Positions 1 to 34,100 are shown, counted from the stretch's first letter. The stretch is 64,000 bases of DNA from a virus (IMGVR_UViG_3300042558_005069:1-64000), one strand, 5' to 3'. The notes: a model not told the origin generated them from the sequence alone. Made by a program: numbers and translations.

Positions 1-1
1 A

Positions 2-100
2 CCCCCCCCCAACAACCCGGGGGGGGGGGACTCTCAGTACTGGTGGGTACTGAGAGTCCCTAACTAAAGGATAATGCAGAGGGTTACATTATCCTTTAGT
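2..100. repeat. Three abutting inverted repeats: C9/G11 tracts, 14-bp stem GGGACTCTCAGTAC (27-40/47-60), 14-bp motif-A stem (63-76/87-100)
   Basis: Read directly from the sequence; lies just downstream of the stop of the minus-strand gene 109..573. Confidence 0.9.
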
Positions 101-108
101 AACAACCG

Positions 109-573
109 CTAACTAAATAGCGACTGAACTGCATCGGCTAGGGGACCACGACCTGAGTCGTCACCGCCCATAACCTCAACCTCGTTTAAGTCCTGAAATC
201 GGACAACGCTAGTTACTGAGTCGGCAGATGCACAGACAAGTAGGCGAACACGACGACGTGCTTCATGCTTGCTGGGTGCTGGCAAATCTTCATCGTTGCC
301 GTCGTAATTATCGGGCAATGGTGAAGCCCAACCAGTAGTTACCAATACGATACAGTCATACCATTTCGCTGCGAACCTCGCCCCATCGCTGGAGAGAAGA
401 TCGTAGATGTCCTCTGCTTCGGTCACTTGGTCAAATAGATGAACCTCATCGCCGTCTGTCTCTACACCAAAAAGCAACGGCTTCGCTAACTCAAAAGCCT
501 TATCTTCATTCTCACGAATGAGCAAATCGTGTATCTGTTGCTCAATGTTTTTGGAGATGTCTAGTGGTTTCAT
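109..573 (-). CDS. Hypothetical phage protein
   Basis: 154-aa ORF with GAAAGGG RBS and a motif-D promoter upstream. Confidence 0.8.
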   Translation of the reverse strand: MKPLDISKNIEQQIHDLLIRENEDKAFELAKPLLFGVETDGDEVHLFDQVTEAEDIYDLLSSDGARFAAKWYDCIVLVTTGWASPLPDNYDGNDEDLPAPSKHEARRRVRLLVCASADSVTSVVRFQDLNEVEVMGGDDSGRGPLADAVQSLFS

Positions 574-939
574 ATTTCCCTTTCATATGTGTCGTTGGTG
601 ACATTCTTACTGTACCTCATAGGGGACAGATTAGCAATTTGCATTATCCTTTAGTAGTGGGGCTATCCGCCACCGTCAAAGATTAGGGGACAACGTGACT
701 CCGCTCAAAGTCACAGCCCTCTAGATGGTGAGAAACTTCTTTAATCGGATGACATTATCGCAACGCGCCCCCGACGATGAGTTGGCTGGAGTCTGGCTTG
801 GGGCGACGGACAGAGCCCCGCTGCTCACCGCTTCAGCCGGGGCTTCGTCCCGATAAAGGTCATTTAATCGCCAACCTGTCCCCGTAGTGGTACGTTGTGA
901 ATGTCGGCAGCGGGTCGGCACATACGGAGAGGGTACGAA

Positions 940-1161
940 GTGGAAAAATTGTCTTGCTTAGATTTTGGCAGTGGTGAGTGCGTAGGCGATGTGGAACTAT
1001 CCCTCGCACAGCCTGTGCGCTATCGCACGAACGGGGAATTCATCATGTTCCCTCGTTGCGAAAAGCACTGGGACGAATACGCAGATAGGGCTCAGGCTCG
1101 CCAGGAGCGCCAGTGGGCGGCAGAACGGGCAGAGCGTGACGAATGGGCGAACTTTGAGTGA
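940..1161 (+). CDS. Hypothetical Cys-containing protein
   Basis: GTG start after GGAGAGG; motif-D promoter upstream. Confidence 0.65.
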   Translation: MEKLSCLDFGSGECVGDVELSLAQPVRYRTNGEFIMFPRCEKHWDEYADRAQARQERQWAAERAERDEWANFE

Positions 1162-1340
1162 GTCGCGCCAAACTTTGCGAACGTGCCGAGAACGTCTCTC
1201 GGCACGTTCGCTCTATTAGTTTGATCAAAGCCCCGGCCGAGGGCGAGCTCAGCGGGGCTCCAACCGCATTCGCGTCATCTAATCGCTAATCTGTCCCTGT
1301 CGTGGTATGTTGTGAATGTAGTCAAGCGAAAGGAAAAGTA

Positions 1341-1610
1341 ATGCAACAATCACATTCAAGAGTCACAGAGTTAGAGCTGGGGGCTCCCGTCGTAGTGGGG
1401 CATAGGCTCCTACTCTGGAAGCGTTCATTCTTCTACGCAAACCGTGTATCATACATTGTGTTCTGCAAAGCAGACCCCGATGAGGTTCACGGCTACGCTG
1501 TATGGCGAGTAGAGAAAAACGCTCACGGCGAATACTACGCCGAGACAGGCTACTACTTCGCCGAGTCCGATCTAGTCGAAGCCATACAGGCATACGACGC
1601 TAGAGATTAA
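1341..1610 (+). CDS. Hypothetical protein (paralog of 6663..6977)
   Basis: ATG after GAAAGGAA; shared Y-x-x-W...AExGxYF...YxAR pattern. Confidence 0.75.
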   Translation: MQQSHSRVTELELGAPVVVGHRLLLWKRSFFYANRVSYIVFCKADPDEVHGYAVWRVEKNAHGEYYAETGYYFAESDLVEAIQAYDARD

Positions 1611-1755
1611 CGAGTTACATTATCCTTTAGTGTTAGCGGGGGGTTCGCCCCCCGCTTTACATTATCCTTTAGTGTTAAACCTCTTTCTAAAGGATAATGC
1701 AGGCGGTTACATTATCCTTTAGTAAGAAAAGCACTTTAGTCGTCGCCGTGTTTCG

Positions 1756-2259
1756 TTAAACTCGCTTTGCACATACTGGACCGATACCACGAGCGACACT
1801 TTTTGCATCGGTTAGGTCTGCTCCACAGACACAGCACATAGACATTTCTACGCCTAAGGCGGTGGCTCGCTCAACGGTCATTCTGTCGCTTGCGCTTAAT
1901 CTCTGAATACTTCCACGCTCGTACTCAAAGCGCTCACTTTTTGTTGATGCTGTCGGGATAAAACGCATAGCGTACAAGTTGCCCGTTTCACGGCTCTGCT
2001 TGACCCTGTAAATACCTTCGGGGGTCTCGTACATTCCCGTAACGGTCACGGGGTCGCTTGGTGCTGACACTCTTACTTGGTCATTTGCCATAGAGCGTTC
2101 TACTGCTTCTATTTGGCGAATTGTTAATGAACCATAACGCTCAAACTTAGAGAGTAGGTCTGCATAGAACGAACTACGCCCTGAGTTGATAACGCAAAAC
2201 TTTACTACTTTGAGAGTGCGTTCGTCGGGATTGTTATTCTCAATTTCTTTGATGTCCAT
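1756..2259 (-). CDS. DUF6011-like zinc-ribbon protein
   Basis: C-terminal CxxCGxxLTDxxSxxRGIGPVC motif; RBS GAAAGGGG. Confidence 0.75.
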   Translation of the reverse strand: MDIKEIENNNPDERTLKVVKFCVINSGRSSFYADLLSKFERYGSLTIRQIEAVERSMANDQVRVSAPSDPVTVTGMYETPEGIYRVKQSRETGNLYAMRFIPTASTKSERFEYERGSIQRLSASDRMTVERATALGVEMSMCCVCGADLTDAKSVARGIGPVCAKRV

Positions 2260-2338
2260 TGTTGCCCCTTTCATGGGTGTAGTGGTTATTCATATTGTAC
2301 CTTATCGGGTACAGACTAGGGTCGTTTTACATTATCCT

Positions 2339-2536
2339 TTAGTGTTCGGGGTCGTCTGTCTGATGTTCGGGATCGTCTGTCCCTGCTTCGTAGGCGTGCG
2401 AGAGCCAGCAAAATGATGCACAGACAGGGCATACGACTACCTGCGGATAGTTCACGAGAACTCCATGCTCGTCTAAAACCTGAGAGCGTGTGAGTGGGTG
2501 TAGGGAACGGCAGTGTGAAAAATAGTAAGTCTTCAT
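2339..2536 (-). CDS. Small hypothetical protein with CxxC
   Basis: ATG at 2536; the stop codon lies inside motif A. Confidence 0.45.
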   Translation of the reverse strand: MKTYYFSHCRSLHPLTRSQVLDEHGVLVNYPQVVVCPVCASFCWLSHAYEAGTDDPEHQTDDPEH

Positions 2537-2878
2537 ATTACTTACGAGAAACCTTCGGTAAAAAGATGTCAAGGAAAAATGATTAAAACATTTCCTCAAG
2601 AACGTGACATCACGAAAGTTCCTTCCGCCACCGTCAATAATTTTGAGTCGTTCGGGGAACGCAGTAAATTTGCATTATCGCAACGCGCCCCCGACAGTGA
2701 TCCAGATTTTGCAAAAAACAGGAGCACGGACAAAGCCCCGCGTGAGACCGTTCCTGCCGGGGCTCTTTCGGATCATCCTCGAAAGCTGACTTTACGCGGC
2801 AATTCCGGGTTAGCGTCATTTAATCGCCAATCTGTACCTAGCGAGGTATGCTGCAAGCAACCCAACGAAAGGAAAGTA

Positions 2879-3223
2879 ATGAGAAAAATCAACTATGACA
2901 CGATCACCGTTTTCGACGATTGCGCCGAAGCCGATGAGTGGGAAAAAGAAAACGACAGAGAATGGATCCCTGTCGGCTGCATTGACACCGAGATTCCCTA
3001 CCGCTGGGAAGGCTCACAAGCGAAGATAGAACTGCATGCTGACCTGAATCAGTACTGGTGCGATGGCACCGTTCCTGGGTCTACTCGTGACTGTCTCATC
3101 AAGGATTGGAAAGTGGTTGTTTGGAAAGACAAGAACAACGACAACGACTACGAACTCCACTACGCAGAAAACGAACAAGACGGCAATGAAATCCTAGAGA
3201 GTCTCGCTGTTACATTATCCTAG
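2879..3223 (+). CDS. Hypothetical acidic protein
   Basis: ATG after GAAAGGAA and a motif-D promoter; the upstream ORF extension crosses regulatory repeats. Confidence 0.75.
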   Translation: MRKINYDTITVFDDCAEADEWEKENDREWIPVGCIDTEIPYRWEGSQAKIELHADLNQYWCDGTVPGSTRDCLIKDWKVVVWKDKNNDNDYELHYAENEQDGNEILESLAVTLS

Positions 3224-3586
3224 AGTATGTATTGAGGCTCGCTCCCGTGTGGGGGCGAGCCACTTACATTATCCTTTAGTGTTAGCGGCGAGCCTGACCC
3301 CGGGGGCTTTCCGCCACCGTCAAATAGTACAAGCAGGTATGACATCATTCTGAGCTCATGGCTGAAAGATGCACATTATCTGAACACGCCCCCGATGACG
3401 CAAATAAAAAGTTTGACGCGAGAAGCCAGACAAAGCCCCGCGGCTCACCGCCTTCAGCGGGGCTTCGATGCTCGAGACTTTACATTATCCTTCAGTGAAA
3501 GAAGCTCGGGAATCCCAGCGCGGGGGCGCGCTGGGATTCCCCTAACCAAAGGATAATGTGGGGAGTACATTATCCTTTGGTGTTAA

Positions 3587-4015
3587 TCATTCAATCGGGA
3601 ACGACTGAGCCTTTTTGATTAGCACGAGTAGTAGCGATTCTCTAGTGGGGACTAGATCCCTAATGAGTTCTAACGTTTCCGTGTGAAACTGATTGAATGA
3701 CTTTTCACTGAAACGCGCAACGCCTACTTGGTTGTGAAACCTTGTAGACGGGAACTGCTGCACGTTGAATGGTTCCCAAATAGTGACGGTGAAACCGGCT
3801 GCGGGCTGCCACCAAAGCAAGCGCATAGTGGCGGTGTACTGTTTGCGCTTTGGGTCGTGGGTGAACTCTAGTTCTACTTGCTCGCCTGCCATTGAATTAG
3901 TGCCGCTGTATCGCTGATCTAGTACTGGCGATCGCCACACGTATTTAATGCTACGGTCACCAATGATCGGTTGTGGGAACTTCAGGGTAATTTCTGGGTT
4001 TTGGGTTGTAGTCAT
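3587..4015 (-). CDS. Hypothetical protein, probably leaderless
   Basis: ATG 6 nt after the -10 hexamer of motif D. Confidence 0.75.
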   Translation of the reverse strand: MTTTQNPEITLKFPQPIIGDRSIKYVWRSPVLDQRYSGTNSMAGEQVELEFTHDPKRKQYTATMRLLWWQPAAGFTVTIWEPFNVQQFPSTRFHNQVGVARFSEKSFNQFHTETLELIRDLVPTRESLLLVLIKKAQSFPIE

Positions 4016-4257
4016 ACCCAAAGAGTACTAGCAAGGGTACAGATTAGTGAATGTTTGACATTATCTCAGCACGCCCCCGACAGGTGAATGAGCAAGAGCA
4101 GGTTCAAGCCCCGCGGCCAGACGCTTGTAGCGGGGCTTCGATGTGAAACATTGTCAGTCTCGGTCGGGGGCGCATTTGGATAATGTTGCTTTAATTAACA
4201 ATTTGATACTGACTAACTATAATGACAACGTAAGCAACTACTAGAAGGAGTACTACT

Positions 4258-4554
4258 GTGAACGATATTTATTGCCCAGTATGTGGCGAACCGTGGGACA
4301 ACGACACGCTACATGAATACGCCGAGGAATATGAAACAACCTATAGAGCGACCTACAAATTATTTTTTTCCGATGGTTGCGCTGTGGCGTTCAAAGAATG
4401 GGACATAGCGTGTGAACGCCCTGAGGGTGGTTCATCACGAGCCTTGTTTTCGTCATTGTTGGCAGAGATGCTAGGCGATGACGTGGACGGAATAATTAGC
4501 GAAATGCAGGACGCTGAGTTGCTTGGCTTACTGAACGACAATAGTAAAGGATAA
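4258..4554 (+). CDS. Hypothetical protein with N-terminal CPVCGEPWD zinc knuckle
   Basis: GTG after GAAGGAG. Confidence 0.75.
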   Translation: MNDIYCPVCGEPWDNDTLHEYAEEYETTYRATYKLFFSDGCAVAFKEWDIACERPEGGSSRALFSSLLAEMLGDDVDGIISEMQDAELLGLLNDNSKG

Positions 4555-4559
4555 TGTAA

Positions 4560-4871
4560 ATGCTAACAATAAACGAAAATAACCTATTATTGAACGGCGA
4601 TATTGTTGCCACGCTACCAAACACAAGCGCACGGCAAGTGCTATTACGCGCATTGCTTGAAAGCCTATCTAATCGCGATGGCGTATTTCTTGCGCTATCT
4701 CACTTAGGGGAAGCGCGTACTGCTGATATCGCTCATCTTGTTGGCATAGATAGGTCAAATGCTGGCAGGGTTCTAGACAGCCTATTGTTAGAGGGAATGG
4801 TAAAGGTAGTAAACGATTGCAATAAGGCTGGAACGGTAGGGCGACCATCTAGGGTTTGGGCGACCGTTTAA
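4560..4871 (+). CDS. Winged-helix DNA-binding protein
   Basis: TADIAHLVGIDRSNAGRVLDSL HTH and GRPSRVW wing. Confidence 0.7.
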   Translation: MLTINENNLLLNGDIVATLPNTSARQVLLRALLESLSNRDGVFLALSHLGEARTADIAHLVGIDRSNAGRVLDSLLLEGMVKVVNDCNKAGTVGRPSRVWATV

Positions 4872-4953
4872 CATTATCCTTTAGTGTGTGCGCGTCTATA
4901 TTGGCGCGCACACACTTGAACACTAAAGGATAATGTAAAGAGTACGAAAACTA

Positions 4954-5424
4954 TTATTCGCTCATCGGGTTTGGGGCAATTTCTCCGAATACAGCCTCGT
5001 ACATTTCTCGCCCTGCTTTCCACTCGTCCCACGACCCGTCAGATGAGACACGGATACACGACCCGTAAATAACCTTTGCTCTTATTAGTGAGGCGGTTAC
5101 TACTGCGTCGTATGGCTTGTAAGCCGTTTTGCAAAATGAGAAATGGTCGGGCTCATCTTTGCGCCACTCGGGTTGAGTCGGGATAGCGTCCCACCAAAAC
5201 GACTCGTGCCCATTGTCGCCGTTTTCATCGCTCACGCCATTAAATGCGAAATAACCCTCAGTACACACGGGCTGAGTGTTGGGTGCACCAAACGCGTCAC
5301 CTAGTGCAATTCCGTTTTCTTGTGCATAATCGCAAATTGCTTTTACGTCTAGTCCCAATTTGCCAAACATATAAGCCGACCCTGCGTTATTCATTGGTCG
5401 CGAAACATAGTGCGTATAGCCCAT
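4954..5424 (-). CDS. Conserved hypothetical phage protein (MGYTHY...FCKT..KPYD family)
   Basis: 156-aa ORF, AAGGAG RBS, motif-D promoter. Confidence 0.8.
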   Translation of the reverse strand: MGYTHYVSRPMNNAGSAYMFGKLGLDVKAICDYAQENGIALGDAFGAPNTQPVCTEGYFAFNGVSDENGDNGHESFWWDAIPTQPEWRKDEPDHFSFCKTAYKPYDAVVTASLIRAKVIYGSCIRVSSDGSWDEWKAGREMYEAVFGEIAPNPMSE

Positions 5425-5511
5425 TTCTTTTCTCCTTGTCTAGTAGTTATTATTAGATTACTTTACGATATTCAGACTAGCGATTAAATTACATTATCCT
5501 TTAGTGATAGT

Positions 5512-5784
5512 TCACAAGTCAGGGTTGAACCAACCCCAAGAACCATCAACGTTAATTACTACGTCCTCGGGCGCTAGGCAGTTGATTAGCGGAACAGCAG
5601 TACTATTCCAACTCCATGTAAAGTTTGGCTTTAGCGAAATATCGCAAATGGGTTTAGTTTCTCTATTGTCGCTTGTGATTAGTAACGTGGCAAGAACGAC
5701 GACAACGGAAGTCGCCAATCCCCATACTATTATTCTTACGAAAGTGCGTAGCGTGTAGTAAGCAGATGACTTTTCATTGTTCAT
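5512..5784 (-). CDS. Membrane-anchored hypothetical protein
   Basis: N-terminal hydrophobic helix; RBS and motif-D promoter. Confidence 0.7.
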   Translation of the reverse strand: MNNEKSSAYYTLRTFVRIIVWGLATSVVVVLATLLITSDNRETKPICDISLKPNFTWSWNSTAVPLINCLAPEDVVINVDGSWGWFNPDL

Positions 5785-6032
5785 ACTTTCCCCTTTTTCT
5801 AGTAGTTGTTATTAGACTACTTGACGCTATTCAGACTAGCGATTAAATGACATTATCTCAACACGCCCCCGACAAGAACAAGCGTGAGAGGTTTCAGCTT
5901 AAGCCCCGCAGGCCAGCCTGTCCCCCGGGGCTCCTACCGGATTCAGCCACAAGCGCATGACTCGAAATTGGCAAGCGCCGTTACTAAAGGATGATGCCGG
6001 ATTACATCATCCTTTAGTAACGATTGCTCCTA

Positions 6033-6452
6033 CTAGAGTCCCCGTTCCCTGCGCTGTTGTTCTGTCACAGGGCGCAACGTTGTCTCGCTGCCGGTTGGGG
6101 CATCGTGGTGAGATAGTGAGTATTCAACTCGGTCGGAATAAACCTCATAGTGCATGCGCCATTCACTTCTGACTGTCATGGCTATAAGCATTTCTTCAAC
6201 TTTGTCTACCTTGAAATGTCCGGATATATCGCCGTTCCAAAGTCGCAAATTCTCAACGGACCACCAATCAGTTTCGTTGCTGTGGCGTAGTTCCATTGTT
6301 GCCTCTCCGAACTCGGCTACTGAGTCGCTCCAGCAATAACCAAAACACTCGGATGCTTCTTTATAGTCTCCGGTGTTTTCGTCATAGGCGGTGCAAGTGC
6401 ATAGGTTGGTTATTTCTCCGGCTGTGATGAGTGTTTTTTTGGTTGTTGTCAT
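6033..6452 (-). CDS. Hypothetical protein, probably leaderless
   Basis: ATG 6 nt after the -10 hexamer of motif D. Confidence 0.75.
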   Translation of the reverse strand: MTTTKKTLITAGEITNLCTCTAYDENTGDYKEASECFGYCWSDSVAEFGEATMELRHSNETDWWSVENLRLWNGDISGHFKVDKVEEMLIAMTVRSEWRMHYEVYSDRVEYSLSHHDAPTGSETTLRPVTEQQRRERGL

Positions 6453-6662
6453 GTCTTCAATTTACCATTGAGGGTACAAACTAGCGTTTTTGCATTATCC
6501 TTTAGTAATGTTCTTTTCTCCAAATTTGCAAAACTTCTTTTTTCGTGTAATACAAGTAAAAGTGATAAGGGTAGTCATGAGTCCCATCACAGGGCAAGCG
6601 ATAAAACCCCGTTTTTGTTTTTTCTATACTTTTTAGTGTTGGTGTAATTTTTGGCATTGCGC

Positions 6663-6977
6663 TCACCAACCTCCCCGAGCCTCATAGTCTCCAACTGAAC
6701 GCTCAATTTCATTTGACAGAAAATAGTGTCCTGCCTCTGCAAGAAAACCCTCAGGGCGAGCGGAAATAATCCACGTCACGTACTTGTGATATGACCCCCT
6801 ATTGTTGGACTCACAGAGTGCAATCCAACTAGAGTAAGTATCCCCAATAACTCTCTCCGTGAGACGCTTGCAACGCAATACGGTGTGATCGGAAATGGAC
6901 ATACCTTTTGCAAGTAAGTTGAATTCTGCTTGTGTCTGCCCGTTGTGATCGTTAATTGTTTCTAATTCTGTTTGCAT
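6663..6977 (-). CDS. Hypothetical protein (paralog of 1341..1610)
   Basis: AGGAG RBS; shared C-terminal motif. Confidence 0.75.
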   Translation of the reverse strand: MQTELETINDHNGQTQAEFNLLAKGMSISDHTVLRCKRLTERVIGDTYSSWIALCESNNRGSYHKYVTWIISARPEGFLAEAGHYFLSNEIERSVGDYEARGGW

Positions 6978-7178
6978 TTTTTCTCCTAGCAATTGGTAGT
7001 AGGTGTTGTTAGTAACGTACCTTGCAGGTAACAGGCTAACTATAAATAAACATTATCGCAACACGCCCCCGATATGATCAGTCTGCGAGCCGGAGGGGAG
7101 AAGCCCCGCGTGGGGCGTGCGAAGCCGGGGCTTTAATGCTCGACAACAGCATTATCCTTGAGTGTCGGCGAGCGGCGC

Positions 7179-7511
7179 TTACCCGTGCCAGTTTTCAGAC
7201 CGCTCTATGAAGTTGCGCAAACTTTCCTCGTCGGTCATTTTTTCTTTCTCGCCTTCTTCGATAATCCAACCGAAAACGTCCTGACGTATGGCGCATCGTT
7301 CTTCTACTGCTTTCACAGCTTGAGCGGGCGTGAGTGCCTTTTCGCCAAAACCACGCAACCCGGCGTCCCATTCCCAACCGAACGACTCAACAAGATCGGC
7401 ATCGTCGTAGCACTCGTAGAGCTCTGACTCAAAAAGGTTCTGGGGGTCGCTGTAGAGCGGCATTGCTTTAATTGCGGCGACTATTTCGTCGTGTTGTGGG
7501 TGAGTTTTCAT
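7179..7511 (-). CDS. Hypothetical protein
   Basis: AAGGAG RBS, 110 aa. Confidence 0.75.
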   Translation of the reverse strand: MKTHPQHDEIVAAIKAMPLYSDPQNLFESELYECYDDADLVESFGWEWDAGLRGFGEKALTPAQAVKAVEERCAIRQDVFGWIIEEGEKEKMTDEESLRNFIERSENWHG

Positions 7512-7537
7512 TTCTTTCTCCTTTTGTTTGGGTTTGT

Positions 7538-7834
7538 TTAATAATTCATTTTGTCAAAAGCGGCGGCGGCGCCTTTAGCCATTGCGTCTTGACGAAAGGC
7601 ATAGGTCGTGTCAAACGCAACCCGCAGAACATTCCGGTGAAGTACTGAGATCTCCTCTTTTTCCAGAACGTCGTAATTTGCATTGTCGCCATACTCGCAC
7701 TCAAGCACGACTGCCACGCTGTGCTTTGTGAGCACGCTTTTAACCTTGACGAACTTAATTTCGCCATTCACTTTTGCGGCGAAAACTACTTTTTTGTTTT
7801 TGTCAATAGCGGCGCCGATGTCCCATACCTTCAT
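7538..7834 (-). CDS. Hypothetical protein
   Basis: AAGGAG RBS, motif-D promoter. Confidence 0.75.
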   Translation of the reverse strand: MKVWDIGAAIDKNKKVVFAAKVNGEIKFVKVKSVLTKHSVAVVLECEYGDNANYDVLEKEEISVLHRNVLRVAFDTTYAFRQDAMAKGAAAAFDKMNY

Positions 7835-8062
7835 GTTCTTGTCTCCTTGTGTGTGTTGTTCCTGCCGATGACTTAAAAATACCAGCAGGGGTACAGATTA
7901 GCGAAAAAGCTACCCTAATCAGGTTGAGGCGAGGCGAACAAGCCCCGGCTTCGTCCGCGCTCAGCGGGGCTCGCATGGGGTTGGTGTTCTTTTATCGCTA
8001 ATCTGTACCTGTCATGACAGAATAGGAACACGGGGGAAACGCCCTCGGGATTAGGGGAGATT

Positions 8063-8254
8063 ATGCCACTCTGGAAACAAAGAACAGAAGTAGACAAGGG
8101 CTACAAAGACATCGTGCTGAGGGAATTGGGAATAGAACAAGACCCCAAAGACTGGGAGCGCTCAAATTGGGTGATCTTTTTGTTGTGCGCTGGTTTTGAC
8201 ATAGAAACGATTACAAGGTTTCTAGCAGACGACGGTCGCTTCGTTTACGACTAA
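8063..8254 (+). CDS. Small hypothetical protein
   Basis: GGGGAG RBS, motif-D promoter, followed by a hairpin. Confidence 0.65.
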   Translation: MPLWKQRTEVDKGYKDIVLRELGIEQDPKDWERSNWVIFLLCAGFDIETITRFLADDGRFVYD

Positions 8255-8278
8255 AAAGATTATCCTAGATAGTTCGGG

Positions 8279-8312
8279 TGGCTTGCTCTCGTAGGGAGAG
8301 CAAGCCACTTTA
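8279..8312 (+). terminator. GC hairpin GTGGCTTGCTCTC/GAGAGCAAGCCAC followed by TTT and motif A
   Basis: Perfect 13-bp stem between convergent genes. Confidence 0.7.
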
Positions 8313-8378
8313 CATTATCCTTTAGTAATGGGTCGGGGTTTTCTCCCGACCCATTACGGTCTATTGTCGTAACGACCC

Positions 8379-8600
8379 CTAGTCGTACCACCTAGATGCT
8401 GGCAACTCGCACAGTAGGCAGATCGCGTTTCTTAGTTTTGCGAGAACTCGTGGGCTATGTCTTATTTTTGCAATGTCTGCACTAACTCCGTAAACTTCGC
8501 GGAGTTGGTGAACGGTGAAATCGTTACAGCAATACGAACAGATAAACCCTTCGCTGTCTTTGTCGTAAGCGACCGTCTCTAGATCTTTGTATTCATACAC
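8379..8600 (-). CDS. Small protein with two CxxC motifs
   Basis: GAGAGGA RBS; CSYC and CLLC. Confidence 0.6.
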   Translation of the reverse strand: MYEYKDLETVAYDKDSEGFICSYCCNDFTVHQLREVYGVSADIAKIRHSPRVLAKLRNAICLLCELPASRWYD

Positions 8601-8742
8601 AGTTAGTGTTTCCTCTCTTTATCCTTTAGAGGTTGCTTACCTCTGCTGATCGGACATTCAATAGAAAGAAAAACATCATCGCAATGTTCCCCCGAGTGCG
8701 TGATGCATCCACTTCACGACAAAGCCCCGCTGTAAACCGGCC

Positions 8743-9225
8743 CTAACGGGTCTCCATGCTTGGGAGAGTCTTCATCGAGCGCAGCTGATGCTTACCTAAG
8801 CGCCAAGACTCACGCCAGCCATTTGGATTGAAAAGGTTCTCGTCTTTTTTGACTTCGTACCCGTAGGCCCATCCGACAAAAAAGAAAACGTTCCCCATGA
8901 GTTGTGCAAATATATATCGCCTCTGAATGGGGTCGTTGTCTCGGATGATAAGGCCACCACGTGGGTGACTAGTTGCTCGAATCTCATTTTCTCCGTCATC
9001 GGGAATTTGGTGAAACTCATTTATGGGGTTGTGCCACAGTTTTTCATTGATGCGCGCCCAGGCTAGTTCTGCTCCAGCCCCAACTCTTTCCTGTTGGATT
9101 CTCTCGTCCATCGAGCGATCATATGTTGATGCATGGTTCAGTCCCTGTTTGCCAGACTCGGTTATGCGTAGCCTGACGGCTTTATCAACTTCTGCCCAGT
9201 CACTGTCTGTCATTGCGTATCTCAT
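8743..9225 (-). CDS. Conserved hypothetical phage protein
   Basis: GAGAELA...EIRAT...GLIIR...VGWAYG pattern; start codon uncertain. Confidence 0.65.
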   Translation of the reverse strand: MRYAMTDSDWAEVDKAVRLRITESGKQGLNHASTYDRSMDERIQQERVGAGAELAWARINEKLWHNPINEFHQIPDDGENEIRATSHPRGGLIIRDNDPIQRRYIFAQLMGNVFFFVGWAYGYEVKKDENLFNPNGWRESWRLGKHQLRSMKTLPSMETR

Positions 9226-9401: not shown

Positions 9402-10319
9402 TTAAGCTCTTGCTCCTGGCTTGTTGGCGAGGAATTCAACCAAGCTCCTAATCCCTTGGTTGGGCAACCCACTGCATGTTACGTAGATATTGAACGTACC
9501 ATTTGGCTGCTTTTCTTGTTCGATCACCAACTGAGAAAGATCAAATCCGTAGTTCTGCCATTTCCAGCGGAATGTTTGCCAATAGCTCGACTTTGAAGTT
9601 CCTTCAGTTGCAAGCATTCTCGTATTGGGGCGTGAAACAACTTCAAGAAACTTTAGCTCTTGAGCGTTTATTGCGTATTTGCCCGCATGTGAAAGAGACG
9701 ATTGCGACACGCTAACTTTTTTACTGTTAGAGAATACGGGAGACCCGGAACGTACTGCATCCTCGATCTTTTTCAGCTTTTGCTGCAAAGCAGCGTATCG
9801 CGAATGACCCTGTGGGGACATTTTCCCACTATCCGTGTATCGAACATAATGAGAGATCATTCCGTTCTCATTGCGAGTGCGAAGCTCGAAACACGATCCG
9901 AACCCACCAAGGCCAACATTTGCTCGACGTGATTTAGATTTTGCAGCGATATGCCACTCTTCAGGAGAGGCCATGAGTGTGAGCATCAACATTTCTGTAT
10001 TTGTTAATTTTGGAACCCGTACCACAGCAGCGGCGCTGGAGTTGACACCAGTCAAGGATGGAGGAAGGTCCATCTTAATTGGAGCAGAGAGTCCCATGTT
10101 CTTAATAATTTTCGCCATTGACGTAAGTGTTGAAGGGTCAACAGGGGTGTCCGTAGGGTACATCGCTTTCTCGTTGATTGCTTCAACCAGCAATTTCTCA
10201 ATCTTGGAAGTTGATAAGGTTTTTCCTTTGACAACTTCATTTGACGTTTTTGTATCGACCATATGGTCCTCCATTCGGTTTTTTGTATCCCGCTTTTGCG
10301 GTAGTTGGAAAGTTAACAC
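9402..10319 (-). CDS. Hypothetical protein
   Basis: 305-aa ORF; the true start is probably slightly downstream. Confidence 0.65.
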   Translation of the reverse strand: MLTFQLPQKRDTKNRMEDHMVDTKTSNEVVKGKTLSTSKIEKLLVEAINEKAMYPTDTPVDPSTLTSMAKIIKNMGLSAPIKMDLPPSLTGVNSSAAAVVRVPKLTNTEMLMLTLMASPEEWHIAAKSKSRRANVGLGGFGSCFELRTRNENGMISHYVRYTDSGKMSPQGHSRYAALQQKLKKIEDAVRSGSPVFSNSKKVSVSQSSLSHAGKYAINAQELKFLEVVSRPNTRMLATEGTSKSSYWQTFRWKWQNYGFDLSQLVIEQEKQPNGTFNIYVTCSGLPNQGIRSLVEFLANKPGARA

Positions 10320-12368: not shown

Positions 12369-14324
12369 TTGTTCGCTTTAAATAAAAGGTGGATATTTAA
12401 AATGAAGTTATATTTTGAGAAGAATGAAGTCGTTTTTGATTTTCCATTTGAAAGATCCCAAGTCGACGAGCTCAAGTCCATTCCTGGAGCCAAATGGGAC
12501 AAGGGGAACAAGGTCTGGCGACTGCCCGTAACGTCAATTCAAGCCGGGCGCGATTTTGCAATTAAGCATGGGTTCGACGTAACAATTGATGTTCTCAAGT
12601 TTGACGCTCCAAAGTTAGGGAAGACGTCTTCGGCTCGGGTAGTAATAGAAGACGACACAATCTTTATGTACTTCTCGTACGAGCGCGTGATAATAAAAGC
12701 TGTCAAACAAATACCCGCTGTCTCATGGGACTCCAAACGACACGGGTGGCAAGCTCCCCTGTCTTCTGCATCTAATGTGATTGAGTGGGCCGAAGCTTTC
12801 AATGTACCCATTGACGACAAAGTCATCGCAGTCAGTGACGAGATACGTCAAAAAATGAATCAGTTAATCGAGGCCTCCAGATCAACGGACGCACTGATTG
12901 AGGTCGAAGCAATAAACGGGGAAATGCTCCCGTACCAAAGGGCTGGGGTTATGTATGCATCAAACGCCCGCCGCACATTCATCGCCGACGAAATGGGGTT
13001 GGGAAAATCTCTGCAGGCAATTGCAACCATTGAGTACGTTCAAGATAGTTACCCAGTCGTTGTCGTGTGTCCCCCGAGCCTTGTTCTCAACTGGCAAGCA
13101 GAGTACACAAAATGGCTTCCCAATAGAAAAGTCTCAGTAGTTACTAACCGTAAAGATTTTCCAGAGTCTGGCTCATACGACGTAGTCGTGGTTGGTTACA
13201 GCAATATCCAGACATGGGAAAAGAAACTATCGAATCATCGCTCGTATGTCTTTGACGAATCCCACTACTGCAAGACACCCACGGCAGCCCGCACCAGGTC
13301 GGCAGTAAAGATTGCAAAGTCGGCACCCAAGGAAGGTCTAGTTCTTTGCTTGACCGGCACGCCGGTAACGAATCGCCCCAATGAGTATGCTTCCCAGTTG
13401 GAGATTCTCGGAAGACTGAAAGAGTTCGGTGGGCTTTGGGGATTCTATCGTCGATACTGCGGCGCATTTCAAGACCAGTTCGGGCAATGGAACATAAGTG
13501 GGCACTCGCACCTTGATGAGTTGAACGAAAGACTACGCTCAGCCTGTTACATCAGACGAACCAAAGATCAAGTGCTTACCGAACTCCCGCCCGTGATACA
13601 TAGCAGGATAGTTGTCGCAGGAACATCAGCAGGCATGAAGGAGTACGCAAAGGCAGAGAAAGATATTCTGTTTTATATCGCTGAAAGAGCGCGAGAGCTT
13701 GCCATTAAAGAGGGAAAAGACTCTAGCTACAAGGCTGCGATGGCTGCGATGATTCGAGCGGAAGCAAATGAGCATTTAGTTCGACTTTCGGTTCTACGTC
13801 GTCTCGCAGCAAAGGCGAAGATGGAAGAAGTACTGGAGTGGGTGGCAACCCGTGTAGAAAATGGCAAGAAAGTCGTAGTCGCAGCGCACCACAGAGAGAT
13901 AGTTGATGAAGTTGCTCGCCGTTACGGAGGAATAAAGATTCAAGGCGGGATGGCGGTAGAGGACGTTGAAGAAAACAAGAGAAAGTTTCAGGAACTCCCC
14001 GTAGAGGAAGTTCCAGTCATAGTGCTTTCCATGCAGGCTGCTAAGACTGGTCATACACTCACAGCGTCAGAAGAATGCTTATTCGTTGAACTCCCGTGGA
14101 CGCCCGCTGACGTAGATCAAACTTTCAGTAGATTGCACAGGTTAGGGCAAAAAGGCAGTGTCACTGCTACCTACATGCTTGCTGCTGGGACTATCGATGA
14201 GGACATCTATGAGCTCATTGAACGTAAACGCACAATCGTTGATGCCGCAGTTGATGGCATAGAAGCCATAGACAACGAAGGCGCTGTTCAGCTTATTATG
14301 AACCTTCTCAGCAGAGCTAGCTGA
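12369..14324 (+). CDS. SNF2-family helicase with two N-terminal HARP-like domains (SMARCAL1-like)
   Basis: ADEMGLGKS, DESH, LTGTP, QTFSRLHRLGQ; two G/AxxWDxxxxxW repeats at the N-terminus. Start probably ATG 12402. Confidence 0.9.
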   Translation: MFALNKRWIFKMKLYFEKNEVVFDFPFERSQVDELKSIPGAKWDKGNKVWRLPVTSIQAGRDFAIKHGFDVTIDVLKFDAPKLGKTSSARVVIEDDTIFMYFSYERVIIKAVKQIPAVSWDSKRHGWQAPLSSASNVIEWAEAFNVPIDDKVIAVSDEIRQKMNQLIEASRSTDALIEVEAINGEMLPYQRAGVMYASNARRTFIADEMGLGKSLQAIATIEYVQDSYPVVVVCPPSLVLNWQAEYTKWLPNRKVSVVTNRKDFPESGSYDVVVVGYSNIQTWEKKLSNHRSYVFDESHYCKTPTAARTRSAVKIAKSAPKEGLVLCLTGTPVTNRPNEYASQLEILGRLKEFGGLWGFYRRYCGAFQDQFGQWNISGHSHLDELNERLRSACYIRRTKDQVLTELPPVIHSRIVVAGTSAGMKEYAKAEKDILFYIAERARELAIKEGKDSSYKAAMAAMIRAEANEHLVRLSVLRRLAAKAKMEEVLEWVATRVENGKKVVVAAHHREIVDEVARRYGGIKIQGGMAVEDVEENKRKFQELPVEEVPVIVLSMQAAKTGHTLTASEECLFVELPWTPADVDQTFSRLHRLGQKGSVTATYMLAAGTIDEDIYELIERKRTIVDAAVDGIEAIDNEGAVQLIMNLLSRAS

Positions 14325-14831: not shown

Positions 14832-15857
14832 CTAAGCCCGTGACAACAGATAATCCTGCGCACGCAGCTTCGAACGGGTCACCCATGAATTCGAGTCCAT
14901 AGACGCAATCGCACGTTCCTTCACTGTCGCATCACGATAATGATCTAGGTATTCTCCGATGGCATTTACCGTTGACCAAGCGTTGAACCCGTAGTTCTTG
15001 GCGTTGTTCTCGTTCATGTACACAGCTTTGACAAGCGCAATGATGTTGTCTCTGTTCTTCTGCTGCCTATCCGTCTGCTTGATAGATAAAGGAAACACTT
15101 GATTGAGAACATCGTCCATGATTTTCGATGAAGGAGGAACGCTTATGGATAGAAGCTTGTTGGCTGTAGCAGTAAACTCCGTAGCCCATGTGCGTGAAAT
15201 GCGCAAAACGTCATTCGCCTGCTCCATAGCCCGTTCTGCATTTCGTGTATGCCGCGCTGTGAACACGCGGTTAGCGGCAGAAACTCCAAGGACTACCGTG
15301 TTCTTACATACCGCCCGTATGCTCGTGTTGGCGAAGGTGATAGCGATCTTCCCGTCGTGCCCGTTACGGACGAGCAGGTATCTCGCAATCTCGTCGTTTA
15401 CGCCCATAGGGTCAATGACCAGCGGTCCTAGGTCGATGGATGAAAAGAACTCACGTCCTCCGTTGAGCACTCCACACGTGTCTACTACAGCATCGCCCGA
15501 TGAGGCTCCGACGATAGCAAGTGCGTAGTCAAGGCATTCACGGTTCTGCTGGACAACGTATCGAGTCCCCACGGTAGCCAATCCATTGAACGTTCCGTCC
15601 GGATTGACTCGTACGGTCGCTCTGCTGTCTGGAATCATTACGTATTGACCGTCTGGGTTCCTGATCGGCTGTCCTTGATCGTCACACACCGCAACGCGAG
15701 TGGTGACAACGTCGAAATCTGCCTGAGCTGCTGCGAGCATTGCTTCCGCTGTCTGCAAGCCCTCCATCGGCACCCCTAGGCGATGCCAAGGGATTTCCCT
15801 GTTGGAATAAGCCATTCTGGCTTGACCGTCTGATGCGAATTCTAACTGATGAGCCAT
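14832..15857 (-). CDS. DUF932 (LGT_TIGR03299-like) phage/plasmid protein
   Basis: MAH...PWHRLG, Y.VVQN.E, NGHDG, IRAVCKNT, RHT motifs. Confidence 0.85.
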   Translation of the reverse strand: MAHQLEFASDGQARMAYSNREIPWHRLGVPMEGLQTAEAMLAAAQADFDVVTTRVAVCDDQGQPIRNPDGQYVMIPDSRATVRVNPDGTFNGLATVGTRYVVQQNRECLDYALAIVGASSGDAVVDTCGVLNGGREFFSSIDLGPLVIDPMGVNDEIARYLLVRNGHDGKIAITFANTSIRAVCKNTVVLGVSAANRVFTARHTRNAERAMEQANDVLRISRTWATEFTATANKLLSISVPPSSKIMDDVLNQVFPLSIKQTDRQQKNRDNIIALVKAVYMNENNAKNYGFNAWSTVNAIGEYLDHYRDATVKERAIASMDSNSWVTRSKLRAQDYLLSRA

Positions 15858-32931: not shown

Positions 32932-33207
32932 ATGACAGAGTACAGTAAACTCAAAGAAAAAGGAATGGGCAGGGGAAGGCCGAAACACACCGCAGAACAA
33001 AAGGCGGCTGCGGAAATAAAAAATCGCGCAAGAACCGAATCTCGCCGTCGTGCCGTTCTGGTGCTAGTGGATAGGCACAGGGAAGAATTTCAAGATATTT
33101 CAGATGTTGAATTCTTGGCTTGCGTTAAAGAAATCGAGGCCGCTATGAACAAAGGGCAGCAAGCGAGCGCTTCGCCAAAAAAGTCCAGCAAGAGTACGCG
33201 CAAATAA
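32932..33207 (+). CDS. Basic hypothetical protein with AT-hook-like GRGRPK
   Basis: AAGGAG RBS. Confidence 0.7.
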   Translation: MTEYSKLKEKGMGRGRPKHTAEQKAAAEIKNRARTESRRRAVLVLVDRHREEFQDISDVEFLACVKEIEAAMNKGQQASASPKKSSKSTRK

Positions 33208-33223
33208 CTAAAACAATCTAAAT

Positions 33224-33412
33224 CTATTCATTAATTGGCGGGGTCCCTATTTGGGTCTCGCCAATTTTTGCATCTAGTTGCCCTATGAGTTCATTCATGA
33301 CAAGTATTGCATCAAGTTGTTTTTCGAAGTCACGACGTTGCTTTGCATGAATTTTATTAATATCTTCAAGTTGATCTTCCATTGGCTTGCTGTCGTCCAT
33401 TGGCATAGGCAT
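33224..33412 (-). CDS. Small hypothetical protein
   Basis: Coupled ORF. Confidence 0.5.
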   Translation of the reverse strand: MPMPMDDSKPMEDQLEDINKIHAKQRRDFEKQLDAILVMNELIGQLDAKIGETQIGTPPINE

Positions 33413-33603
33413 TATATTTGGTCCCTTTGTTTAATTATTTTTTTACCGTTTTTTTTATGCGTTTTTGACTTTGATCTTCCGTACTCTATTTCTAGCCAAT
33501 CATCGAAATCTTCATATGCTCCAGGGGAGGTTTTAATGTATCGCTCATACTCTGCAAGAAGTTCGATATATTCTTCGTCTGTTTCGTCGAAATAGCTTCC
33601 CAC
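33412..33603 (-). CDS. Small hypothetical protein
   Basis: GAGGA RBS, coupled. Confidence 0.55.
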   Translation of the reverse strand: MGSYFDETDEEYIELLAEYERYIKTSPGAYEDFDDWLEIEYGRSKSKTHKKNGKKIIKQRDQI

Positions 33604-33605
33604 TT

Positions 33606-34100
33606 TTATTTCCTCACACTCCTTGAAGCCGACTCTGCAGCTCTTGTATTCTTTATGAATTGAGCTCCGGATCTACTCCCGAGAAGTTTTTTTCTATTTG
33701 TTGCTCGACGCTGAGCAGGAGTAAGGCGGCTCCAGGCTTTTGCTGGTAAATATCTTCTCGTTCCGCCCTTGCGAATAGCTGGCTTCCCGTCGCTTGTCGT
33801 CCATTTTTCTCGAGTCCATTTTTTCAATGATCGTTGAGTTTTCTTAACTCCACCCCTGTACCCGCCACCAGCTTTTCTGTACTCAATCGCTACAAGTTGA
33901 GCTTTTCTGGCTGACCACTGCCCAGGCTTCCCACCTTTAGACCCGGCCATAATGCGCTTCTTGATTCTTTCTCGCACTTCTGGTTTCGTATAAGACATTT
34001 TTGCAGACTTGACAATAAAATCCGGAGCATTATTTATAAAATCCGATGCTGACTGATCTACCCATGCTGGAGCATTCTCTGTCTGTGTTGTTTCACGCAC
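33606..34100 (-). CDS. DUF5872-like basic protein
   Basis: YTKP..RERIK...GSKGG.PGQWSARKAQL...GGGY, KWT.EKW, RYLP; GTG start at 34100 preferred. Confidence 0.7.
   Translation of the reverse strand: MRETTQTENAPAWVDQSASDFINNAPDFIVKSAKMSYTKPEVRERIKKRIMAGSKGGKPGQWSARKAQLVAIEYRKAGGGYRGGVKKTQRSLKKWTREKWTTSDGKPAIRKGGTRRYLPAKAWSRLTPAQRRATNRKKLLGSRSGAQFIKNTRAAESASRSVRK

Follow-up and report, generated by a model that had tools for sequence, protein, structure and literature searches.

An oriented, lineage-specific word at expression-unit boundaries in a hyperplastic phage region: a possible stoperator-like site

The stretch of DNA analyzed here (the window) comprises bases 1-64000 of IMG/VR record IMGVR_UViG_3300042558_005069 (full length, 104,099 bp), from an uncultured lake phage, and its left part is densely populated by a 14-mer, CATTATCCTTTAGT, referred to below as the word. 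We find that the word belongs to an 18-kb hyperplastic region, in which our gene predictions give an array of about 35 small expression units, each self-contained and most of them leftward, and that it lies at the boundaries of these units in an orientation that follows local transcription. A complete relative lacks this word and carries a different one in the same layout, and CATTATCCTTTAGT appears to be the form that an oriented unit-boundary word takes in this lineage. The explanation that we favor, tentatively and by analogy, is that the word may be a stoperator-like site for a lineage-specific DNA-binding protein, acting at unit boundaries as a polar barrier, insulator, or silencer.

Number, extent, and strand of the word copies

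At two or fewer mismatches, CATTATCCTTTAGT has 23 matches in the window (13 exact), all at positions 63-8630, whereas 100 dinucleotide-preserving shuffles of the window gave a mean of 0.6 and a maximum of 2. In the whole 104,099-bp record, all 21 copies with at most one mismatch lie below 8.4 kb, and a scan of the remaining 95 kb gave zero matches. A previous sequence-only reading, which had counted about 22 copies and none past about 8.7 kb, is borne out in this respect. Seventeen of the window copies are on the plus strand and six on the minus strand, and, as that reading had also proposed, most of the minus copies are partners in inverted repeats: five of the six are arms of the pairs 63/87, 1686/1710, 3545/3568, 5983/6005, and 4872/4922. 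The first four of these have spacers of 8 to 10 nt, and the wide pair, 4872/4922, encloses a GC hairpin.

Alignment of the copies extends the consensus to TTA-CATTATCCTTTAGT-R-W, and the sequence outside is unrelated. The edges are sharp, with conservation gone within 2 to 3 nt of the word, leaving a nonpalindromic site of 14 nt, or 17 nt with its flanks. Read along the direction of transcription, its sense form is ACTAAAGGATAATG. We found no paper in the published literature containing the word, Megablast of window 1-9000 against cultured phages gave zero matches, and an Rfam search returned three tRNAs only. Among 185,579 prokaryote genomes, the 17-mer form has 70 single matches in unrelated taxa, which by a rough estimate is about what is expected by chance; these matches thus point to neither a host site nor a prophage.

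The word-bearing region is internal in independent assemblies

A metagenome scan with an 18-nt form of the word identified two contigs that extend the region leftward, Ga0164292_10001593 (18.4 kb) and B570J29032_109955001. Part of the first corresponds to window 22-2360 at 99.9%, and its other end is the reverse complement of IMG/VR contig 3300013004_005466 (17.2 kb; G001); the second contig independently bridges the join between G001 and the window side. The resulting composite runs from G001, reversed, through 4.2 kb, to window 22 onward, and synteny with a complete relative, G003 (see below), confirms this order. According to these independent contigs the word array continues for about 9.5 kb to the left of the window start, and in the composite the 18-kb region holds 44 copies (two or fewer mismatches; 34 plus, 10 minus, 25 exact) and is flanked on both sides by word-free conserved genes.

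Logan contigs from four lake-water DNA runs begin their correspondence at window 19-22, where they are preceded by other modular sequence, and both they and Ga0164292_10001593 show different sequence before the G run near window 21. Neither source supports window 1-19 (a C run and then AACAACCCG, before the G run). These bases are probably an assembly artifact at a homopolymer, and the start of the record is therefore not a physical genome end. The sequence-only reading had placed the copies in an early region, and a framing of this region as a genome end has to be given up, since four other assemblies do not support bases 1-19 and the array goes on to the left. The suggestion of a DNA-entry or translocation signal loses its basis with it, because the region is internal in independent assemblies. 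More generally, a genome-polar DNA signal seems unlikely, both for this reason and because the words flip together with the units that they border (see below).

Position and orientation relative to genes

Genes were called with codon log-odds trained on long open reading frames (ORFs) and a Shine-Dalgarno (SD) score. The region in the composite has about 36 called genes, of which 28 are leftward, and the word largely avoids them: 5 of the 44 copies fall inside called ORFs, compared to 31 expected (minimum, 20 in 2000 permutations), and in G003 the corresponding figures for its own word are 14 of 80 and 54 expected. The dominant layout is a plus copy just left of a leftward gene, so that ACTAAAGGATAATG comes after the stop codon of that gene, 0-50 nt past it. 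For 38 of the 44 copies the right neighbor is the 3' end of a leftward gene, often -5 to 15 nt away, and in four cases the TAA of the word doubles as the stop codon. At seven tandem junctions the next leftward promoter follows 2-4 nt beyond the word, and where genes converge, copies stand on either side of GC hairpins or have an inverted copy as a partner. Gaps between leftward genes contain 22 plus and 6 minus copies, and the sole rightward-rightward junction (at 4543) has a minus copy, which is again in the sense orientation. The sequence-only reading had described the orientation as holding regardless of gene direction; instead, it follows the direction of local transcription, and the plus-strand bias is explained by the predominance of leftward genes.

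The inverted pairs are predicted to form hairpins of 15-18 bp and -20 to -26 kcal/mol (z scores of about -7 to -10). Most copies, however, are single, without a partner arm or stem-loop. A test for intrinsic terminators was negative: the word-word hairpins are AU-rich and lack a U tail, single copies form no hairpin, and the word of G003 is not U-rich.

Relatives carry different words in the same layout

G003 (IMG/VR 3300032291_003679; 158,021 bp, with direct terminal repeats and rated complete) was found through a companion repeat, the B box (see below). Both the composite and the remainder of the record are collinear with it, at 30-80% protein identity; gene order differs inside the word region and is collinear outside it. 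No copy of CATTATCCTTTAGT is present in the complete G003 sequence. It carries instead 83 copies of ACTTACCTACACC (two or fewer mismatches; 57 plus), all but two of them inside or just beside the syntenic region at 11.7-46.5 kb. Orthologous units in the two phages bear the word of their own lineage just 3' of the stop codon, and the orientation rule also holds, with 36 plus and 5 minus copies in leftward-leftward gaps and 1 plus and 4 minus in rightward-rightward gaps. The G003 word, too, occurs in short-spacer inverted pairs and in tandem pairs, and it lies 7-15 nt upstream of leftward promoters. A promoter core, TCTGWMCC-N6-9-GKTAnnnT, is common to both phages (19 in G003 and 10 here), with a word just upstream of 12 of the 19 and 4 of the 10. 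One unit, ParA-like, is inverted and relocated in G003, and its word is inverted along with it. We note that the ParA/MinD-like ATPase gene lies in the word-rich region at L313:3169-3777 (minus) and at G003 33060-33680 (plus), a shift of about 10 kb; no centromere-binding protein was identified as its partner.

Three more contigs with the B box have words of their own, ACTTATCTAGT, ACTTATCTACTCC, and AGTTATCTATTAG. The five lineages thus have five words, all co-oriented with the B box, which have a TTAYC half in common and differ in the other half. With regard to conservation in related phages, on which the sequence-only reading had staked its interpretation, the word itself is not conserved and the grammar of its layout is. 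The same reading had pointed out that the reverse strand reads TAA-AGGA-TAATG, resembling a stop codon, an SD sequence, and a start. These features are indeed used here, TAA as a stop in four copies and the SD or start in two, and the copy at 4543 does serve as a ribosome-binding site by supplying the SD of gene 4560-4871; another such use is the start codon of a conserved 159-amino-acid (aa) gene in G001. They are incidental, as the corresponding words in relatives contain neither an ATG nor an SD of this kind.

Several other identities of the word were considered and rejected. A stop-SD-start cassette or ribosome sink, a U-rich terminator tract, and a GATAAT -10 box are each excluded because the words of the other lineages lose those letters. 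The consensus of the DnaA box is a 9-mer of the TTATCCACA type, of which TTATCC only is matched, and it is precisely in the CACA part that the words of the lineages diverge. A site-specific recombination site was also rejected, as neither a tyrosine nor a serine recombinase was matched in G003. The word is unlikely to be read by a factor of the host, since the promoter core and B box remain constant while the word has changed and since the 17-mer is at about chance frequency in prokaryotes.

Companion repeats and promoters

Four further repeat families share the stretch occupied by the word: the B box, the C element, palindromes, and a boxed promoter. The C element opens with CATTATC, the same 7 nt with which the word begins, and 50-60 nt farther on, nearly always on the plus strand, comes an AGCCCCG-N17-CGGGGCT palindrome; such C-D cassettes are found at window 753-843, 2673-2763, 3374-3463, 4059-4136, 5851-5931, and 7051-7131. 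G003 has a C-D cassette as well, and this opens with the half-word of its own lineage, AYYTACCT. Two different elements have therefore changed in parallel. The G003 cassette also contains CCGTGTTG, the reverse complement of CAACACGG found here. Scans of IMG/VR with C and E motifs gave chance matches only.

The B box, TCCGCCACCGTCAA, is always on the plus strand (14 of 14 co-oriented in the composite; window 667-679, 2625-2637, and 3311-3323). With small variants it is common to many word-free IMG/VR viral contigs (e.g., L494, L447, L448, and L468), where it is always co-oriented. Its distance from the word is variable (25-58 nt), and we rejected it as a -35 element for the word. The promoters of the region (window 623-639, 866-896, 1281-1310, 2822-2851, 4036-4052, 6473-6489, 7890-7906, and 7993-8022) have a TCTGTMCC box in the spacer and an extended -10, TGGTAYnnT. 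A stricter 17-nt form of the promoter box has no good match in the record outside the word region, and a sigma-70 consensus scan of window 1-9000 showed no excess over chance. All five rightward promoters here are without a word.

A stoperator-like site as the preferred explanation

The analysis establishes the anatomy of the region, the orientation rule, the confinement to intergenic gaps, the replacement of the word in relatives that keep its layout, and the parallel half-word change; we infer the binding of a protein, its effect, and its identity. Dozens of unit boundaries retain a sharp-edged word, which is replaced wholesale between lineages, and the C element changes in parallel; a trans-acting reader that co-evolves with its site would leave such a pattern. 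On the preferred reading, a phage-encoded, lineage-specific, sequence-specific DNA-binding protein would recognize the word as a bipartite site, composed of the conserved TTAYC half and the variable half. Positioned at unit boundaries, it would act as a polar transcription barrier or insulator, or would silence the region; a side effect may be that the recurrent sequences at the boundaries provide joints for the loss, gain, movement, and flipping of units, much as in the stem-loop cassettes of T4-type phages (see below). The analogy with mycobacteriophage stoperators, one of several raised by the sequence-only reading, survives the comparison, as the word is an asymmetric 14-mer in tens of copies that is intergenic, tied to transcription, and different between lineages. 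Overall, the earlier observation is partly confirmed and the interpretation attached to it partly supported.

Several points weigh against this explanation. The gene calls are home-made and rough. In three inverted pairs of the composite the two arms share a variant base, an indication of base pairing rather than protein contacts, and the spacers of the inverted pairs are variable (8-10 nt). The word is confined to one 18-35-kb hyperplastic region and is not genome-wide as stoperators are. No tyrosine or serine recombinase, integrase, or resolvase was matched in complete G003, and there is thus no evidence there of lysogeny or of an immunity repressor. Finally, no reader was identified among the candidate proteins compared. 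Three helix-turn-helix (HTH) proteins common with G003 (an XRE HTH protein, an HA plus sigma-70 region-4 HTH protein, and a second winged-helix protein) have identical recognition helices in both lineages and therefore cannot read a lineage-specific word; the conserved B box or the promoter box would be a more plausible target for them. The TrmB/MarR-like winged-helix protein of gene 4560-4871, whose SD is a copy of the word, has no homolog in G003.

This winged-helix protein has three metagenomic homologs in which the recognition helix is invariant, and an alignment search of IMG/VR gave no relatives. The 159-aa gene (L124:1950-2429) starts at the ATG of a word copy, and the TAA stop of the gene upstream overlaps the word. 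A structural model of its product (predicted local distance difference test [pLDDT] score, 84) has a helical N-terminal domain, which is variable, and a winged helix at the C terminus, which is invariant; Foldseek returned nothing at an E value of ≤0.001, the weak matches being winged-helix domains. Both proteins are candidate readers only.

An extension of the preferred reading, which we regard as rather doubtful, is that a family of large freshwater actinophages uses the words as an address code for its accessory genes. Each lineage would have a private bipartite word, with the TTAYC half in common and the other half its own, co-evolving with a reader of a new kind, probably a monomer with two domains, that would insulate each swappable single-gene unit and could silence the corresponding region of a co-infecting relative only if the words match. 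If so, phages that have no lysogeny module would possess an immunity-like system of specificity. Should a protein read the words, this would be a stoperator-type system outside the temperate Cluster A, in a large and apparently nonintegrating phage, and one serving a single shufflable accessory region. It would explain how dozens of small self-promoted genes can be packed on both strands and still be transcribed without interfering with one another, and at which points such regions are broken and rejoined as phages evolve. With promoters and B box the same, the five related words provide a natural series for specificity, which is directly testable, and they are possible orthogonal insulator or operator parts for Actinobacteria. 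What is new here is the five-member series with its common half, the parallel change in the C element, and the corrected genome-end framing.

Alternative explanations

The main rival, which we nonetheless consider improbable, is a purely cis-acting cassette linker without a dedicated reader, in which the word is a conserved part of regulatory cassettes made up of a promoter and a stem-loop, is homogenized by frequent recombination or gene conversion between them, and provides hairpin arms and short homology for shuffling only. The region is hyperplastic, its units are reordered and flipped relative to G003, the inverted pairs would make stable hairpins, and the promoter-early stem-loop (PeSL) cassettes of T4-type phages behave in this way (PMC2839356). 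In addition, in four runs (contigs only), a 9.15-kb segment loops in the assembly graph on a 33-nt node (8294-8326), at 0.54-0.86 of the depth of the core sequence right of 8326, which suggests that there are genomes with and without the segment, or with another arm. The segment is flanked by word-bearing 66-nt repeats, each consisting of a GC hairpin and a word (94% alike), at window 8261-8326 and L313:4903-4966. However, the word has sharp 14-17-nt edges in unrelated flanks, and such short conversion tracts at 44 sites are unlikely; the single copies that make up the majority have no partner arm; and the half-word has changed in parallel in the unrelated C element. The constancy of the promoter core and B box during replacement of the word likewise fits different readers better than it fits homogenization. 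We read shuffling as a consequence of the repeated boundaries and not as their purpose.

Less probable again is a signal at the RNA level, in which the sense transcript, nascent or mature, is read by a lineage-specific phage factor (an endoribonuclease, termination factor, or stabilizer) or pairs with antisense copies of the word, and so sets the 3' ends or processing of the mRNAs of units. In either lineage no positional rule is more consistent than the sense copy right after the stop codon, polarity would be inherent, and the inverted pairs fold at -20 to -26 kcal/mol, with three retaining pairing through changes in both arms. Yet the variant arms do not match in three of the six pairs that have them here, nor in the majority of those in G003, the hairpins lack a U tail, and no candidate RNA-binding protein or RNase is known. 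Moreover, the copy at 642 is upstream of a leftward start site in a divergent-promoter gap, with no unit of the same direction upstream, and lies outside the transcripts of either flanking promoter, which mildly favors DNA over RNA as the level of action. A few G003 copies are in similar divergent gaps, although the flanking gene calls there are mostly weak.

We think it very unlikely that the word acts as a lineage-specific promoter, used by an RNA polymerase or a sigma factor of the phage, or as a docking site for an activator at the adjacent host-type promoters. Promoters of the T7 group are intergenic, oriented with transcription, and lineage-specific, as the word is, and the word does lie just upstream of a share of promoter cores, larger in G003 than here. 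Only about one-sixth of the copies adjoin a promoter, however, the spacing from word to box varies by several nucleotides without helical phasing, and the rightward promoters here manage without it. As promoters, the inverted pairs would stand face-to-face 8-10 nt apart, and copies past rightward genes would send antisense RNA into those genes. G003 gave no match to sigma70 region 2, and none to a T7-type polymerase (PF00940) in a search that lacked a positive control.

It is scarcely credible that the word marks oriented nicks or serves in injection, translocation, or packaging close to the leading DNA end: the strong strand bias and confinement to a single region would suit such a role, and T5-type first-step-transfer regions are repeat-rich, but the region is internal in independent assemblies with conserved genes on both sides, occupies 11.7-46.5 kb of complete G003, and has words whose orientation flips with flipped units, unlike a genome-polar signal.

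The window copies individually, and the cargo of the region

The sequence-only reading placed copies just upstream of minus-strand promoters at 642, 2330, 5492, and 6493, and these are all seen; each is plus and exact. Copy 642-655 is in the divergent-promoter gap, and 2 nt separate it from the downstream box (623-639) of the leftward promoter that serves gene 109-573. Copy 2330-2343 abuts the leftward promoter of gene 1756-2259, and its TAA is the stop of the leftward ORF 2339-2599. Copy 5492-5505 lies 6 nt past the stop of 5512-5784 and abuts the next leftward promoter, and at copy 6493-6506, which is 3 nt upstream of promoter box 6473-6489, the TAA is the stop of 6502-6666.

The GC hairpins accompanied by copies, as reported previously at 1618/1660, 3213/3267, 4872/4922, and 8313, are likewise present. 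Copies 1618-1631 (plus, exact; 7 nt past the stop of the rightward gene 1341-1610) and 1660-1673 (plus, exact) form the left and right flanks of a hairpin at about 1636-1655. A second hairpin has on its left copy 3213-3226 (plus, degenerate with 2 mismatches), which spans the stop of the rightward gene 2879-3223, and on its right copy 3267-3280 (plus, exact), with a B box next at 3311. Copies 4872-4885 (plus, exact; directly past the stop of 4560-4871) and 4922-4935 (minus, exact; 18 nt 3' of the leftward gene 4954-5424) are the outer arms of a long hairpin of -34.8 kcal/mol. Copy 8313-8326 (plus, exact) comes after a GC hairpin at about 8276-8308, within the repeat 8261-8326 that recurs 9.15 kb leftward.

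In each of the four close inverted pairs, the left arm is minus and the right arm plus, the latter standing 3' of a leftward gene. The pair 63-76 and 87-100 (both exact) forms a 16-bp hairpin of -20.3 kcal/mol (z, -8.2), with its right arm 8 nt from gene 109-573. The pair 1686-1699 (1 mismatch) and 1710-1723 (exact) is at -19.9 kcal/mol, 32 nt from gene 1756-2259. Both arms of 3545-3558 and 3568-3581 have the same A-to-G change (-20.3 kcal/mol; 5 nt from gene 3587-4015), and both arms of 5983-5996 and 6005-6018 have the same T-to-C change (-26.1 kcal/mol; 14 nt from gene 6033-6452).

Three further copies have one mismatch. Copy 3483-3496 (plus) is 19 nt right of the palindrome 3435-3463; copy 4543-4556 (minus) is in the sense orientation between two rightward genes and holds the stop of 4258-4554 together with the SD of the winged-helix gene 4560-4871; and copy 7150-7163 (plus) is 15 nt 3' of the leftward gene 7179-7511 and 18 nt right of the palindrome 7103-7131. 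The rightmost copy, 8617-8630 (plus, degenerate with 2 mismatches), is 16 nt upstream of the start of 8379-8600.

For most of the 30 region proteins tested, no Pfam family was found, and a search of IMG/VR gave no relatives of ORF 9402-10319. Recognizable genes include those for DUF6011 (window 1756-2259), DUF3846 (L313:2589-3074), DUF932 (14832-15857), and SNF2 (12369-14324). Leading regions in conjugative elements typically have a set of the DUF6011/DUF3846/DUF932/SNF2 type, and this resemblance hints at anti-defense cargo in the region.

Comparison with known systems

The stoperators of Cluster A mycobacteriophages are asymmetric 13-mers, present in more than 20 copies and tied to the direction of transcription; their reader is a monomer with two DNA-binding domains, and from one subcluster to another the motif varies together with the repressor (PMC9283540, PMC6550527). 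Like these sites for L5 gp71-type repressors, the word described here is an asymmetric 13-14-bp sequence that recurs tens of times in a genome, occupies short gaps between genes, in places overlapping a stop or start codon, and has one orientation relative to transcription. Related lineages have related but distinct words, the combination of a conserved and a variable half would fit a two-domain monomeric reader, and the host group here is probably also within the Actinobacteria, the capsid being closest to those of Gordonia phages. Unlike stoperators, the word also forms the arms of inverted pairs and brackets hairpin terminators, and the phage is large (about 150 kb), with a relative that lacks an integrase or resolvase match and with no evident immunity role.

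The start-associated sequences (SAS) and extended SAS (ESAS) of Cluster K mycobacteriophages are a second oriented 13-bp word, with an SD-like core, 3-8 bp upstream of gene starts (PMC3203893). Both are gene-boundary words, a subset of SAS is accompanied by inverted repeats with spacers of 4-13 bp, and the SAS consensus is slightly subcluster specific. The word here differs in being tied to the preceding stop codon and in preceding the next promoter; only 2 of its 44 copies act as an SD or start, and the words of relatives have neither an SD nor an ATG.

In the PeSL cassettes of T4-type phages, conservation has been explained by a host sigma-70 promoter and a terminator (Arbiol et al. 2010, PMC2839356). 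The resemblance is at the level of the region: repeated regulatory cassettes in a hyperplastic region of small genes without assigned function, a promoter and stem-loop for each unit, upstream stop codons inside the cassette, and recombination between cassettes leading to indels and shuffling, for which a possible counterpart here is the 9.15-kb segment at sub-core depth. In contrast to the PeSL, the word is separate from the promoter core and terminator and changes between lineages while the core stays. The array is a variation on known kinds of system, with stoperators as the model for the logic of the site and PeSLs for the logic of the region.

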